From Elsinoe ampelina (Eukaryota), in NCBI GenBank assembly GCA_010093995.1, contig ML992527.1:56106-76105 (forward strand): a DNA stretch of 20,000 nt, written 5' to 3'. The translations under genes and the position numbers were made by a program. Shown in pieces: positions 1,170-7,417 of the stretch; positions within the stretch are counted from its first letter, which is position 1, and each line of letters starts with the position of its first letter. A model generated the notes under the pieces. The model was not told the origin of the DNA, made no database searches, and saw only the letters and a list, made by a program, of their open reading frames with translations.

Positions 1170-2718
1170 CTAGAACGAGATCTTCTTGCCCTTGAAGTCG
1201 CCGAAGCCACCTCTGTTGGTGGACTGGAAACCACCACGGCCGCCACCACGGCCGCCGCCACGACCACCGCGACCTCCTCCGCGACCGCCACGGTCATTGA
1301 ATCCGCCACGGCCACCACGACCTCCGCCGAAGCCACCACGTCCACGACCGCCGCGGGGGCTGTCACCAGTAGCGGGACGAGCACCAGCGAAATCGAGACG
1401 GACGTTGCGACCTCCAATGTCGGCACCATTGAGACCTTCGACGGCAGCCTGAGCTTCCTCAACTGTGGCAAACTCGACGTAGCCGAAGCCCTTCATGTTA
1501 CCAGAGTCGGGGTCGGTGGGAAGACGGACGCCATTGACGTTGCCGTACTCGGAGAATGCCGAAGTGATCATGTCCTGGTCCGCGTTGAACGAGATGTTGC
1601 CGACAAACACAGTGTTGCTTGGCTCATTGGGAGCTCTGTCACCAAACTTCTGAGCCCGGGCAGAGACCTGCTCGTTGTTGTATGAGCGGTCGGGGCGAAC
1701 CTTGCCGAAATCGATGTTGATCTCGCGGCCGTCGACTTGAGCACCCTGCTTGGCATCAAGAGCAGCAGTGGCACTCTCGACGTCCTCGAACTCGACGTAA
1801 CCGAAACCCTTTGAGCGGCCACTGTCGCGGTCGGTGATGATCCTGACGCCGACGATGGTGCCGAAGCCCTCGAACTCGCGGCTGAGCCAGTCCTCATCGA
1901 CGTTCCAGGACAGAGAACCAACGAAGAGGTTCTTGGATGGTTCGCTCAAAGGCTCTCCGTTAAGCTTGACACGCTTGACGGGGGTGGTAGTCTCGGTATC
2001 TGCCTTGCGCTTCTTCTGTTCAGGGGCCTTCTTCGCAGGCTTCTCCTCTTCCTCCTCGGAGCTGTCGCTATCGCTGTCGGCTTCAGAGTCGGATCCATCG
2101 CTGAGGGCACCGGTCTATACGATATCAGTCAAATTTAAATGCGTTGGGAGTCAAGCGTACCTTTACGGCTTCCTCTGCGGCCTCCTCCTCCGAGGAAGAA
2201 GCATCGGAATCAGACTCGTCGCTCTCGGCAGCCTTCTTGACGACCTTGCCGTTGGTGGCGGGCTTCTCCTCCTCATCAGACTCGGAGTCATCAGAAGAGT
2301 CGGAGCTGTCCTCCTTTGCAGCAGCCTTGGTAGTACCGTTGGCCTTGGCCTTGGGAGCCTCGACCTCGGACTCACTGGACGAGTCGGAGTCGCTGGACTC
2401 TTCCTTCTTTGCCTTGGTCGCCTTCTTTGCACCGTTGACCTTGGCAGGCTTCTCATCAAGGGACATCTCGCTGTCGCTATCACTGGCGCTGCTCGCAGAG
2501 CTGTCACTAGTGGCGCTATCGCTGTCAGACTCGCTCTTGACGGAGTCCTTGCGCTTCTTGTCGGATTTCTGGTGTGCTTTGGCTGCAGTCTTTGCAGTCG
2601 CCTTGCTCTTCTTGGTATCTTCAGCAGGCTTGGTCACACGACCAGCCTTGACGCTCTTGAGGGCAGCAGCGGGGGCCTCGGCCTTGACCGCCTTTGAGGA
2701 TGACTTGCTCTTTGCCAT
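1170..2718 (-). CDS. NSR1: Nucleolin-like nucleolar protein Nsr1/Gar2 (~500 aa); exons 2718-2161 and 2114-1170
   Basis: N-terminal Lys/Ala-rich and acidic Ser-Asp blocks, two RRMs (LFVGSL...KGFGYVEF; VFVGNI...KGFGYVEF), C-terminal RGG/GAR domain ending GDFKGKKISF. A 46-nt intron at 2160-2115 (GTACGC...CTGAT...TAG) joins ORFs 2125..2889 and 1170..1949 in frame. Confidence 0.95.
1200..1360 (-). repeat. Coding low-complexity RGG/GAR repeat of Nsr1
   Basis: Tandem CCACCACGG/CCGCCACGG-type units on + encode RGGRGRGGFGGGRGGRGGFNDRGGRGGGRGGRGGGRGGGRGGF. Confidence 0.9.
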
Positions 2719-2720
2719 TT

Positions 2721-3060
2721 CTGTACGAACGTTAGTATGTGTGTAATAGCACCACCTTGTCAGCAAGCAGTATATGCTTGACCAGAGTCGGGGCGACTCG
2801 TCTCGAAAAGCCCACAGGTATGTCAACGAAGTATACTCGTGACAACCAGATCCGTCGAGTGCTCTGTCGCTGGCCAAGTGTTCCCACAAATGCCTGACGA
2901 GAGCAGGAACCCCGCAGATGCCTCTTTGGAAGAAGCTGAAAGCCTACAAGCCCACTGGTACGGACACACGAGACCCGCCGCAGTCTCTGGTAGTATTCTG
3001 ACAACTCGATGACGAGTGTCTTATTTGAGGAAAAGCCCACTGAAAGTGTATGCAACGAAC
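2721..3060 (-). other. Probable 5'-UTR intron of NSR1 (3' end well supported, donor uncertain)
   Basis: Minus strand reads TACTAAC (2737-2731) GTTCGTACAG|AAATG: a perfect branch point and an acceptor 2 nt before the start codon. Candidate donors are GTTCGT at 3060 or GTGGGC at 3040, 2955 or 2815. Confidence 0.6.
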
Positions 3061-3109
3061 CGATGTGTATGTTATGATCCCTCTGTAATGCTCTCGGATA
3101 TCCCACGTG

Positions 3110-3396
3110 AAAGAATAGTCCCTGATTTCAAAGACTAGGTATGAGTGTGAGAAGGAAGAAAATGTGTCGCTCGAACTTTTTTTTTTTGTAAAAGGCGGCG
3201 GCGGGTCGTCCAAGCTCCCAGCGGCAGACACTGCAGAGGTTTTCTTCCCCGCTAGCGCCGTCCGACTCGGTGATCAAAACCCTATTGGCGGCAAGGCGGA
3301 CCCTGATTTCATGTCTCGAGCCACATCACCACGGCGGACTTCCACCCGCAGGTCTTGATCGTCAATTCACATGATGCATGCCTTTATGCGGTGACA
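3110..3396. promoter_or_regulatory. Divergent promoter region NSR1/ALG6 with poly(dA:dT) tract
   Basis: Head-to-head genes; T11 at 3177-3187; minus-strand pyrimidine-rich tract at ~3140-3165, typical of fungal transcription start regions; AAACCCTA at 3277-3284. Confidence 0.55.
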
Positions 3397-5268
3397 ATGG
3401 CTCAAACACCATCAAAGGCGTCACATACGCCTCGGAAGAAGAGAAGATCGTCAGGGGCGGCATTGAATTCTGACAATGGCGCTCTGATTCAAGATGGCTC
3501 TTTACAGTACCCAGCATTTCCTCTGGCTGCCTTTCTACTACCGGCCAAGGGGACAGTGTCACAATGGGTCTCAGTGCCGTTGATACTGATGGCAGTCGGT
3601 CTATTCAGATGGGCGTTGGGCTTCTGGGGCTACTCAGGTCGGTGAAGAGACTGCTAACGCTACTCTATTAGACTGACAATACCACAGGTCGAGCAAAGCC
3701 ACCCATGCATGGCGACTTTGAGGCTCAAAGACATTGGATGGAATTGACCACCAATCTGCCAGTCTCTCATTGGTACTTTTATGACTTGCAATGGTGGGGT
3801 CTGGACTATCCGCCGTTGACAGCATATCATAGCTGGATCTTGGGAACTATGCAAGTATTCAAGTAGGACGTCGCGGCATTCTTCTGACAATCATAGTGGA
3901 AATTATATCAACAAAGACTGGTTCGCCCTATACACATCTCGCGGCCTGGATGATCACTCGCTCAAGATTTACATGCGAGCAACAGTCTTGATCTCGGAAT
4001 ATGTCACACTCATCCCTGCAGCTATAGTATGCGTCCGAAGGCTCAGTCGATTATCCGGAGTCAGCTCCTGGGAAGCATCCATTGCTTTGACCGCTCTTCT
4101 TATGCAACCCGCAACACTTCTAATCGATCATGGCCATTTTCAGTACAATACTGTGATGCTTGGCTTCATCGTCTCAACCATTGCAGGAATACTCAGAGGA
4201 CATCCGGCTAGAAGCTGTTTGTATTTTGTCGCCGCTCTCGGATTCAAGCAGATGGCTCTCTTCTATGCGCCCGTTGTGTTCGCATATCTACTGGGTATCT
4301 GCATCTTCCCTCGGATCAATGTCATCCGCTTCTTGGCTATTGCTCTTTGCACGATCGCATCTTTCGCCGTGCTGTATCTTCCCTTTCTGCTGGGCGTCGC
4401 GTACGACTCGAAACGCCGGATACCACTGCCATCCGACCACGAGATCCCTCCACTGCTATCAGCGCTTCCGTTCGAGATCTCACGCCAGTCATACATCTAC
4501 CCTCTGGCTTTGCAGCTGGCGCAGTCCATTCATCGCATCTTTCCCTTCTCTAGAGGACTTTTCGAGGATAAAGTTGCAAACATCTGGTGCGCGATTCATT
4601 CATCTGGTCTACACAAGTTGACACGGTACGACTCATCACTGTTGTCACGAGCGGCGCTTTTGGTCACACTTGCTGCCATTACCCCATCCTGTTTCATCCT
4701 CTTTATCAAGCCTAAGCGGGCTTTGGTACCATGGGCATTCTCGTCTTGCGCATGGGGATTTTTCCTTTGCAGCTACCAGGTCCACGAAAAGAACGTGCTG
4801 CTACCTCTACTCCCCATGACACTACTTCTGGCTTCAGAAAGGGGACTTAAGCCAGACCTCCGAGCATGGATTGGATTTGCTAATATCCTCGGCACCTGGA
4901 CACTATATCCGCTGCTTCAGAGAGACGAACTCCGCGTTCCTTATTTCGTCCTAAATCTTCTATGGGCATGGCTGTTGGGGCTCCCTCCGACTTCACTCTC
5001 TGCATACTTTGGCCAGCAGGGATCATCTCTGAGCCTCTTGACGAAAGTTATACATCTTTCCTTCTATCTCGGCATGATTGCGTGGCACATTGGCGAAGCA
5101 TACGTGCCGCCGCCAGATCGTATGCCAGATCTCTGGGTTGTCGGCAATGCCGTCGCTGGAGCTGCAGGCTTTGGTATCTGCTACCTCTGGTGCACCTGGA
5201 ATCTCATCCTGAAGAGCGGACTTTTCGGATCGTCCACGCTTGAGGCTCCCACTAAGAAGACTCAATAG
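3397..5268 (+). CDS. ALG6: Dolichyl-P-Glc:Man9GlcNAc2-PP-Dol alpha-1,3-glucosyltransferase Alg6 (GT57); exons 3397-3637, 3688-3850, 3897-5268
   Basis: Spliced product contains [77 protein letters not shown] and [11 protein letters not shown]. Introns are 3638-3687 (GT-AG, 50 nt) and 3851-3896 (GC-AG, 46 nt). Confidence 0.95.
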
Positions 5269-5421: not shown

Positions 5422-5770
5422 TTATATGTTAAAGCCATATCCCTTCATGCATGTCTTGTACTGCGAAACCAGGTCGGAGCATTCCTTTTGAGGGTCGTTG
5501 GAGTTGGAGAACAGCATGCACTCGTCGCGAGCGCTCTTCTCATCCTTGCATACGCAGCAGGGCTGGTATCTTGTCAGGGTGGCTCGAGTCTCTTCGAAGT
5601 GTTCCATCGTACCTTTACTTTGGCCGCAGCATCTCCGGCGGGCTTGAGATCGGCGGCGAGATTGTTCGGCGGCGTGGCCGTCGCTGTGACGGAGTCAGTA
5701 TGAGAGTAGTCCTGACATAGATTTGACTAGACTCACAATCCTGTAATGATCTCGTCGCTGGAGCTGACAT
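5422..5770 (-). CDS. COX17: Mitochondrial copper chaperone Cox17 (~81 aa); exons 5770-5737, 5683-5613, 5562-5422
   Basis: Spliced product is MSAPATRSLQDSTATPPNNLAADLKPAGDAAAKVK-PCCVCKDEKSARDECMLFSNSNDPQKECSDLVSQYKTCMKGYGFNI, with the KPCCxC copper motif and twin Cx9C. Introns are GTGAGT...CTGAC...CAG (53 nt) and GTACGA...CTGAC...CAG (50 nt). Confidence 0.93.
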
Positions 5771-6109: not shown

Positions 6110-7417
6110 ATGGCGAAGCTCTTCTCCCTCGAAGGCAAAGGCCTCAAACTCGACACCGCCGCCGACATTGAATCCCACCTCCAACCCCTCATCACCTCCA
6201 ACGACATCGAAGAAGTGCGCTTCCAAGGCAACACGCTCGGTGTCGAAGCCTGCGCCGCCCTCGCCCAAGTCCTCTCCACCAAACCCTCGATACGAGTACG
6301 TCCCCTATACCACGCCATCCCACTCCATGCCCCCCTCACTAACCCCTTCCTCCAGATCGCCAACCTAGCCGACATCTTCACCTCTCGCCTCCTCTCCGAG
6401 ATTCCCCCATCCCTCACCTCTCTCCTCGAAGCTTGCCTCTCCCTCCCCAACTTACACACCATCAACCTCTCGGATAACGCCTTCGGTCTCAACACAGTCG
6501 AGCCCCTTCGCCCTTTCCTCTCCCAACACGTCCCCCTCCAGCATCTTATCCTCAACAACAACGGCCTCGGCCCTGCGGCAGGCACTCTGGTCGCGGAAGC
6601 CCTAACGCAACTCGCCGCGCGCAAAGCCGCTGCCCGGCAAGAGGGGAAGGATGTCCCTGACCTCGAGACGGTGGTGTGTGGACGGAACAGGCTGGAGACG
6701 GGGAGCATGAAGGCTTGGGCGGAGGCGTATCGTGCGAACAACGGGGTGAAGGAGATAAGGATGGTGCAGAATGGGATCAGGCAGGAGGGGATCGTGGTGC
6801 TGCTTCGAGAAGGGTTGAGGCATGCGAAGAAGTTGGAGGTCGTGGATTTGCAGGATAATACGTTCACAGTAGTAGGAAGCCGGGCGTTGGCGGATGTAGT
6901 TCGAGGGGGCGCCTGGCCTGCGCTCAAGGAATTGGGCGTGGGGGATTGCTTGCTCAAAGCGAGTGGTGGGAGGGCAGTGTTCAGCGCGCTGGGGGAAGGG
7001 AAGACGAAGGAACTCGAGGTTATCAAGGCGCAGTACAACGAGGTGGATGCGGGGAGTCTCAAGGCTTTGGCAGAGGGGTTGGACGCGTTGCCGAAGTTGA
7101 GACGGGTAGAAGTGAATGGCAACAAGTTCGCGGAAGAGGATGAGAGTGTGGAGAAGATCAAAGCCGTATTGGATGAACGGAGAGAGAAGGCTGGAGAGGA
7201 CGAGGACGAGGAGCGGTGGGGCGTGGATGAGCTGGATGATTTGGAGGAGGAGGATAATGATGAGGAGGGAGAGGAAGACGAGGATGAGGAAGATGAAGAG
7301 GAGGAAGGGGAGAGGGTGGTCAAGGAGGCGGAGAGGGCGGAGGAGGAGCCTGTTGCTGCGGACCAGGATAAGGAGGTCGATGATTTGGCTGCGAAGTTGG
7401 GCAAGACGGGTATCTAA
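6110..7417 (+). CDS. RNA1: Ran GTPase-activating protein Rna1 (LRR domain plus acidic tail, ~415 aa); exons 6110-6295 and 6356-7417
   Basis: FSLEGKGLKLDT, GNTLGVEAC, ADIFTSRLLSEIP, INLSDNAFG, LNNNGLGP, CGRNRLE, QNGIR, DLQDNTFT and an Asp/Glu tail. A 60-nt intron at 6296-6355 (GTACGT...ACTAAC...CAG) is read through by the ORF track. Confidence 0.95.
   Translation: MAKLFSLEGKGLKLDTAADIESHLQPLITSNDIEEVRFQGNTLGVEACAALAQVLSTKPSIRVRPLYHAIPLHAPLTNPFLQIANLADIFTSRLLSEIPPSLTSLLEACLSLPNLHTINLSDNAFGLNTVEPLRPFLSQHVPLQHLILNNNGLGPAAGTLVAEALTQLAARKAAARQEGKDVPDLETVVCGRNRLETGSMKAWAEAYRANNGVKEIRMVQNGIRQEGIVVLLREGLRHAKKLEVVDLQDNTFTVVGSRALADVVRGGAWPALKELGVGDCLLKASGGRAVFSALGEGKTKELEVIKAQYNEVDAGSLKALAEGLDALPKLRRVEVNGNKFAEEDESVEKIKAVLDERREKAGEDEDEERWGVDELDDLEEEDNDEEGEEDEDEEDEEEEGERVVKEAERAEEEPVAADQDKEVDDLAAKLGKTGI

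Follow-up and report, generated by a model that had tools for sequence, protein, structure and literature searches.

A conserved sense-strand word array in the leader intron or 3' untranslated region of fungal nucleolin-type genes, a likely RNA-level array of binding sites

INTRODUCTION

Cis-elements in the transcripts of RNA-binding proteins are a familiar kind of regulatory sequence, and the element described here belongs conceptually to that kind; this particular array is undescribed in the literature searched. It lies in a 20,000-nucleotide (nt) stretch of DNA from Elsinoe ampelina (contig ML992527.1, positions 56,106 to 76,105), here called the window. A reading of the sequence alone had pointed there to a block at 2721 to 3110, described as a hairpin array with periodic GTGGG motifs in the 5' leader or intron of a nucleolin (NSR1) gene on the minus strand and as a candidate structured regulatory RNA. 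Nucleolin (Nsr1/Gar2) is a central factor in ribosome production, and in the literature searched we found no description of how fungi set its level.

Several known systems share features with this locus. In RPL30 of Saccharomyces cerevisiae, a protein of ribosome production binds its own pre-mRNA at a 5'-proximal intron and restrains splicing, which is what we propose here; however, RPL30 has one structured site that mimics rRNA and its binding is proven, whereas the nucleolin array is made of short linear words, has a putative binder and may sit in the 3' untranslated region (3'UTR). YRA1 of S. cerevisiae is another RNA-binding-protein gene with a long intron of weak signals, and its unspliced RNA is likewise a regulated product, but that RNA is degraded in the cytoplasm, while the nucleolin leader is free of AUGs, which suggests scanning; we know of no repeated word array in the YRA1 intron. 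Many copies of a protein's own word in its own leader also occur in the 5' attenuation of NRD1 and in the A-rich 5'UTR of the poly(A)-binding protein, although there the words are GUAR/UCUU and poly-A, control works by termination and by a block to translation, and neither array is intronic. Sites for Sxl in msl-2 are clustered both in a 5'UTR intron, where they act in retention, and in the 3'UTR, and the 3'UTR autoregulation of TDP-43, hnRNP and SR proteins involves strongly conserved noncoding sequence in genes of RNA-binding proteins; unlike the present case, where neither a poison exon nor a spliced 3'UTR intron was seen, these examples come from animals or concern splicing factors whose regulation involves nonsense-mediated decay. 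A fungal SR-protein case is reported in PMC4379411, and PMC8216456 speaks in general terms of splicing autoregulation by ribosomal proteins.

A further comparison is with the catalogues of fungal RNA motifs (PMC5640933, PMC8216456) and Rfam 15, which hold conserved intronic and UTR elements of housekeeping genes, some of them intronic in certain species and in the UTR in others. Unlike these, the nucleolin element is recognised chiefly by its repeated words and less by covarying structure. NSR1, gar2 and nucleolin are absent from the main text, supplements aside, of Li & Breaker 2017 (PMC5640933) and of Gao, Jones & Rivas 2021 (PMC8216456). The paper on MoNsr1 (PMC11528547; main text without supplement) nowhere deals with UTRs, splicing or autoregulation, and searches of main texts for the word, Nsr1 autoregulation, intron retention and fungal noncoding RNA (ncRNA) returned no description of the element, supplements not being covered.

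RESULTS

A 5'UTR intron in a nucleolin-type gene

The gene downstream of the block and its leader comprise the following features.

1170..2718, minus strand: nucleolin/Nsr1/Gar2-like coding sequence (CDS), with exon 2718..2161, a 46-nt intron 2160..2115 and exon 2114..1170.
2718..2716, minus strand: start codon ATG of this gene, from the translation.
2721..2722, minus strand: acceptor AG, two bases upstream of the start codon, from the contig joint and the sequence.
2731..2737, minus strand: branch-point consensus TACTAAC, from the sequence, the branch A being 11 nt upstream of the AG.
3055..3060, minus strand: donor GTTCGT, non-consensus at +3/+4, from the contig joint.
2721..3060, minus strand: 5'UTR intron of 340 nt, both spliced and retained, from the contig joint and unspliced contigs.
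3061..3159, minus strand: contig-covered part of 5'UTR exon 1; contigs reach 3159 in run X3 and 3145 in run X8.

The translation predicts a 186-residue acidic, Ser-rich N-terminus followed by two RNA recognition motifs (RRMs) and a C-terminal RGG tail. Both RRMs match Pfam RRM_1 (E = 1.7e-44). Nucleolin is among the top Protein Data Bank (PDB) matches (9cb5_A, 1.1e-37), and the same comparison likens RRM1 to hnRNP A1. The nearest Atlas clusters are ascomycete, one of them named "Nuclear localization sequence-binding protein," which we take to be the name of Nsr1. Because of the RRMs and RGG tail, the 9cb5_A match and the ascomycete clusters, the host is, by its predicted protein, a nucleolin/Nsr1/Gar2-type gene of an ascomycete, as the sequence-only reading had held in naming NSR1.

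To follow the transcripts, we aligned to the window the Logan contigs of four public runs (X3, X4, X8 and X12; the run labels are guesses). The contigs skip introns, so the runs are taken as RNA-derived; the 46-nt CDS intron at 2115..2160 is skipped in all four. In three of them (X3, X8 and X12), contigs join 2720 to 3061, reading CT..AC on the plus strand and GT..AG on the minus strand, and the block is therefore the core of a real 5'UTR intron, 3060..2721. This intron is often left unspliced, being kept in contigs of all four runs. One X4 contig (record 12, 1002-2114 + 2161-3090) has lost the CDS intron and kept the 340-nt one, for which no spliced joint is listed among the X4 contigs. The leader measures ca. 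100 nt when spliced and 443 nt when unspliced. Since contigs cover both the intron and exon 1, the block is transcribed, and the TACTAAC (2737..2731) and the AG (2722..2721) just before the ATG are present as had been described. The donor that joins the 2721 acceptor is the GTTCGT at 3060. The proposed placement of the motifs within the 5' leader or intron held for four of the five GTGGG copies, which are in the 5'UTR intron, but the first copy lies in exon 1. For the gene model, this amounts to a correction, the addition of a 340-nt 5'UTR intron with abundant retention.

The words in the window

GTGGG occurs on the minus strand at 3102-3106, 3036-3040, 2951-2955, 2883-2887 and 2811-2815, with spacings of 66, 85, 68 and 72 nt, and exact GTGGGCTT at 3033-3040, 2948-2955 and 2808-2815, all at the positions first reported; these three are the sole copies of GTGGGCTT in the 20-kb window, and all are on one strand. 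The individual copies are as follows.

3102..3109, minus strand: CACGTGGG, the first GTGGG, in exon 1, overlapping an E-box-like CACGTG, from the sequence.
3033..3042, minus strand: motif copy CAGTGGGCTT, which fits the cross-species consensus C-[T/A]-G-[T/A]-GGGC-TT.
2940..2957, minus strand: motif copy CAGTGGGCTT, then degenerate copy GTAGGCTT, from the sequence.
2878..2889, minus strand: conserved block TTGTGGGAACAC, containing the fourth GTGGG, from the comparison of leaders with relatives.
2808..2817, minus strand: motif copy CTGTGGGCTT, then TTCGAGA, from the sequence.

Window statistics by themselves are only suggestive. GTGGG is not enriched in the window as a whole (39 observed versus 43 expected), and GTGGGCTT is found 3 times against an expectation of 0.72, a count reached in 6 of 200 shuffles. 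At position 2945, the window has T on the plus strand versus A in X4, X8 and X12, which on the RNA strand turns GTAGGCTT into GTTGGCTT; the latter is one of the enriched array words, and GTTGGCT was counted 28 times in the sense and 0 times in the antisense orientation in the flanks compared across species.

The array recurs beside nucleolin homologs

A protein-guided scan of metagenome contigs provided 80 loci, ca. 45 of them with nucleolin homologs of 28 to 69% identity. Gene ends were set from the conserved M-x-K-x-K start and GKK..F stop, which gave 40 rows including the window; L018 and L021, for which neither gene end was found, were left out of this count. We scored an array wherever at least three sense-strand GTGGGC words fell within one 700-nt flank, before the ATG or after the stop, and we write its unit as (CUGUGGGCUU)n, with GUCCCCUU as the mutated counterpart. 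At this threshold, 26 of the 40 rows have an array, 14 of them before the ATG and 12 after the stop (24 of 37 after removal of the near-duplicates L005, L020 and L042). In 6 of the 14 array-less rows, almost no flank is present. The counts of GTGGGC over the 40 rows were distributed as follows.

700 nt before the ATG (20.3 kb): 83 sense, 2 antisense.
700 nt after the stop (17.3 kb): 79 sense, 0 antisense.
Coding regions (41.6 kb): 5 sense, 4 antisense.
Rest of the loci (85.5 kb): 6 sense, 20 antisense.

As a control, 39 loci of other RRM genes (182 kb) had 42 sense and 40 antisense GTGGGC words, and the sole array among them, of seven sense copies and of the 3' type (L055:448-674), follows a truncated nucleolin homolog. 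Once relatives are compared, the motif array is thus far beyond chance as judged from these counts, and the GTGGG motifs are conserved in that GUGGGCUU words recur beside nucleolin homologs. The extended consensus in relatives is C-[U/A]-G-[U/A]-GGGC-UU. In 33.7 kb of non-redundant flanks, GTGGGCT was found 111 times in the sense and never in the antisense orientation; the corresponding counts for GAGGGCT were 41 and 0, and about a quarter of the motif copies read GAGGGC. The regular period of ca. 70 nt that the sequence-only reading had seen is not conserved, the spacings in relatives running from 7 to more than 150 nt.

Single elements of the window leader can also be followed in relatives. 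CGTGGG recurs at the aligned place of the exon-1 copy in L004 and L027. The TTGTGGGAACAC block is found in the leaders of L001, L002 and L017 as well as L003, L006, L008 and L012, and L010 reads TTGCGGGAACGC where the last four carry TTGTGGGAACAC. GGTCTCG..TACCAGTGGGCTT is common to the window, L003, L006, L008, L010 and L012. The donor context is GGTTCGT at the aligned place in L001 and L002 and GTTCGA in L010, L003 and L012.

Selection on the array and its relocation

In aligned sequence, the array is more conserved than synonymous sites, which indicates purifying selection. Among L003, L006, L008 and L010, the leader core of ca. 300 nt is 80 to 92% identical, versus 41 to 63% for the four-fold sites of the RRM region and 43 to 62% for the 3' end of the leader. 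For array-bearing 3'UTRs, the 10 pairs among L007, L045, L028, L025 and L022 were 65 to 80% identical, versus 46 to 60% at four-fold sites, with lower values (45 to 50%) for 3'UTR pairs involving the more distant L035; the rows L012 and L037 did not enter the identity comparison. Over a shorter distance, 5 of 356 intron positions are changed in the X12 relative compared with the window, besides a deletion of 2 nt, and the CDS shows 32 differences in 1063 positions and 23 in 560.

We then placed the two array positions on a tree of the RRM region with 42 rows. Within this tree, 12 rows of 3'-type loci are united in one starred clade (100/99), and the starred pair L035 and L037 (96/93) makes up a second 3'-type group among paraphyletic 5'-type lineages. 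Because the tree requires at least three changes between 5'-type and 3'-type labels, the array appears to have changed place between 5'UTR intron and 3'UTR at least twice and to have stayed on the same strand each time. The putative 5'UTR intron and the 5' array occur together, since 12 of 13 5'-type loci have an acceptor-like CTRAY..YAG no more than 50 nt from the ATG, versus 0 of 7 3'-type loci.

In the main 3'-type clade, a 5'-splice-site-like GGTRAGTA stands +478 to +523 after the stop, just beyond the array (for example at L007:3454-3470). It was seen in 10 of 10 rows examined of this clade (L007, L019, L020, L022, L023, L025, L026, L028, L029 and L045) and in 10 of 12 overall, being absent from L035 and L037. 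An AATAAA follows ca. 55 to 70 nt beyond it in L022, L029 and L045, and there is no obvious acceptor downstream of it in the 3'-type clade. Such a sequence may serve U1 binding close to the poly(A) site, or it may be where a 3'UTR intron begins.

Depletion of ATG in the leader

ATG is the sole trinucleotide absent from the 443-nt unspliced leader (shuffle mean of 5.0; 0.2% of shuffles reach 0), and with the same shuffle control it is depleted at p <= 0.006 in 9 of 18 leaders. Given this depletion, the leader seems to be scanned, and the intron-bearing RNA seems to be a working mRNA in many lineages, not only a precursor. Counted over a longer stretch, the minus strand from 2717 to 3312 has no ATG for ca. 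595 nt upstream of the start, as do 0.04% of dinucleotide shuffles (3310-2717). Stop trinucleotides are also scarce in the window leader (8 versus 15.8; p = 0.006). An invariant ATG (GCTACTATGAGGGTTA) is found in the leaders of L003, L006, L008, L010 and L012 (alignment A1, columns ~335 to 470); read from the sequence, GCTACTATGAGGGTTA opens a short upstream frame that runs through several motif copies.

DISCUSSION

An array of binding sites and its possible role in feedback

Strand exclusivity, gene specificity, purifying selection and the relocation between 5'UTR intron and 3'UTR make it very likely that the array acts in the RNA, as a set of sites to which a trans-acting factor binds. That the array controls nucleolin output by autoregulation, with nucleolin itself as the binder, is a narrower claim, and we regard the case for it as evenly poised. 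Nucleolin would be the most economical binder because the array is found only beside the gene of this RNA-binding protein and because TG-rich and G-rich binding has been reported. hnRNP A1, which RRM1 resembles, binds UAGGG. S. cerevisiae Nsr1 is cited as a single-strand binder of (TG1-3)n (Lin & Zakian 1994, as given in PMC4650311), and human nucleolin targets are said in PMC3201861 to share G-rich elements.

In such a scheme, the words would be multivalent sites at which a sequence-specific RNA-binding protein docks, the most probable candidate being nucleolin, acting through its two RRMs and RGG tail. Protein in excess would coat the array on the nascent transcript and hold back removal of the intron with its weak donor (GTTCGT), and the resulting long-leader RNA, free of upstream AUGs, would be translated less efficiently or held back. 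When the protein is scarce, splicing would give the leader of ca. 100 nt and full output. In lineages with 3'UTR arrays, the same binding could act on mRNA stability, 3'-end formation or translation. The earlier suggestion of protein-binding sites for NSR1 feedback fits a sense-only, gene-specific, conserved and relocated array, but the identity of the binder is something that we purely infer.

Other points also weigh against this interpretation. The known nucleolin elements, the nucleolin recognition element (NRE) UCCCGA and the evolutionarily conserved motif (ECM) UCGA, differ from the array word. Gene specificity was judged on sampled loci. The ortholog-like loci L015, L032, L036, L041/42 and L049 have no array at the threshold; in L036, L041/42 and L049, both flanks are present and carry looser words. 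ATGs do occur in some leaders (8 in L001, 5 in L017 and 2 to 3 each in L003, L006, L008, L010 and L012). Contig depths of the spliced and unspliced forms (1990 versus 1036 in X3, 83 versus 42 in X8 and 12.9 versus 6 in X12) are of the same order, a poor measure that cannot quantify retention and from which we draw no ratio. Finally, the predicted accessibility of the motif words is below average (mean percentile of 0.24 of 168 sites), a value obtained with a control that was not composition-matched and counted neither for nor against.

Alternative explanations

A serious alternative, if short of probable, is that the array is read by another trans-acting protein, such as a Gbp2/Hrb1-type protein, an hnRNP-A1-like G-rich binder or a splicing repressor. 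This would be regulation without autoregulation, in which that protein would convey the growth state to the nucleolin gene. The comparative evidence is neutral on who binds, and PMC4650311 names Gbp2 and a Tcg1-type RRM protein as further binders of G-rich single strands. However, a regulon-wide factor should have more targets, and the array stands beside one gene only, with none within 267 kb of other sequence sampled. Confinement to one gene is the usual signature of self-regulation, although the sample is small.

It is improbable that the fold of the element, whether a hairpin array or a G-quadruplex, accounts for its action in place of sequence-specific words. The seven stems named in the sequence-only reading all exist, five folding at -5.2 to -8.0 kcal/mol and two being trivial (-1.9 and -2.9 kcal/mol). 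The five are the following.

3000..3020, minus strand: hairpin GACACTCG-tcat-CGAGTtGTC, -8.0 kcal/mol.
2970..2987, minus strand: hairpin GAGAC-N8-GTCTC, then ..TACCAGTGGGCTT, -6.9 kcal/mol.
2764..2844, minus strand: three small hairpins at 2821-2844, 2785-2799 and 2764-2780, of -6.7, -6.1 and -5.2 kcal/mol.

Small hairpins number 6 in the block versus 2.59 in shuffles (p = 0.086). In relatives, compensatory changes affect 7 of 42 predicted pairs of the small hairpins, as in CUGC..GCAG versus CUCC..GGAG directly before CUGUGGGCUUUGAGA or in the change of CCGC/GCGG to CUGC/GCAG in L003, and canonical G-quadruplex patterns are found in 4 of 40 rows (L001, L017, L035 and L037). Against this, the block folds no better than shuffles, either globally (z-score of -0.64 for 394 nt) or locally (-1.28 to +0.26 in 80-nt windows), so that the structured RNA first envisaged finds no support as a stable fold, and the covariation term is 0.44. 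No canonical G-quadruplex (four G3 tracts with loops of <=7 nt) is present in the window leader or in most arrays, and a G-quadruplex has no need of the conserved GU/GA before GGG and CUU behind it. It is fair to describe the block as hairpins in alternation with words, but the conserved diagnostic feature is the word array, not the fold.

We consider it very improbable that the words serve as decoys or alternatives for the 5' splice site, capturing U1 small nuclear ribonucleoprotein (snRNP) and slowing productive splicing. GUGGGC does match a donor at G1, U2 and G5, the donor in use is weak, L001 may use GTGGGT, and a perfect GGTRAGTA follows the stop in all 10 rows examined of the main 3'-type clade. 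Nevertheless, the sole leader joint is 3060/2721, in three runs, and no contig joint in the four runs begins at any GTGGGC; position +6 is C, not U; and the GA copies (41 GAGGGCT versus 111 GTGGGCT), about a quarter of the total, cannot be GU donors. The alternative weak donors once proposed for this block are thus not supported.

Still less probable is a DNA-level enhancer, that is, repeated transcription-factor sites in a first intron. First introns often contain enhancers, and exon 1 has a CACGTG, but the strand bias of 162 to 2 and the arrays after the stop codon in 12 loci are hard to reconcile with orientation-independent, promoter-near DNA sites.

Searches for known RNAs gave no credible Rfam match: seven chance-level matches in 2400-3600 at E <= 10, and none in six loci at E <= 1. 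The only snoRNA-type row was SNORA74 (H/ACA), upstream at 3401-3446, with 11.9 bits versus a gathering threshold of 71 (E = 2.9). For box C/D, the intron has no ATG, hence no UGAUGA C box, and Rfam gave no snoRNA match in 2721-3060; for H/ACA, the Rfam models found no match in the intron, no dedicated snoGPS-type scan having been made. ARAGORN returned no tRNA genes. Least probable of all, then, is that the intron hosts a snoRNA or some other small RNA of its own, or that there is a short coding frame, even though vertebrate nucleolin introns do host snoRNAs and the window leader has a frame of 131 open codons (p = 0.034). Against this stand the negative searches, the exonic position of the array in the 3'UTRs of other lineages (12 loci) and the lack of conservation of long open frames (2 of 18 leaders at p < 0.05), and the intronic snoRNA or ncRNA of the original proposal is not supported either.

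Neighbouring genes

Divergent from the nucleolin-type gene and upstream of it lies a glycosyltransferase gene of the ALG6/ALG8 family (3371-5268, plus strand; Pfam 6.6e-81), whose intron 3635..3684 appears as a joint in X4 contigs. In L025, a homolog of this neighbour sits downstream of the nucleolin gene, and the neighbourhood has therefore been rearranged between lineages. Further along the window are a gene for the copper chaperone COX17 (5422-5607, minus strand; 61 residues; Pfam 2.8e-21) and one for a leucine-rich-repeat protein of 435 residues with a long acidic tail (6110-7417, plus strand; LRR_4 and LRR_6). The latter may resemble a Ran GTPase-activating protein.

Implications for fungal nucleolin

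The GUGGGCUU-type element is present in at least 24 distinct fungal loci and is as conserved as the RRM amino acids. Its word is a candidate in vivo recognition word for fungal nucleolin, and the array gives a concrete, easily mutated handle on the feedback control of ribosome biogenesis. It is also a natural example of one regulatory module residing in either a 5'UTR intron or a 3'UTR. A more speculative idea, which we consider unlikely as it stands, is that the array is a sensor of free nucleolin, imitating the sites of nucleolin on nascent pre-rRNA. If this were true, nucleolin left idle by rRNA synthesis would cover its own transcript and curb further output of the protein. The supply of nucleolin would then be coupled to rDNA transcription across filamentous ascomycetes, by a module self-contained enough to shift from 5'UTR intron to 3'UTR without loss.

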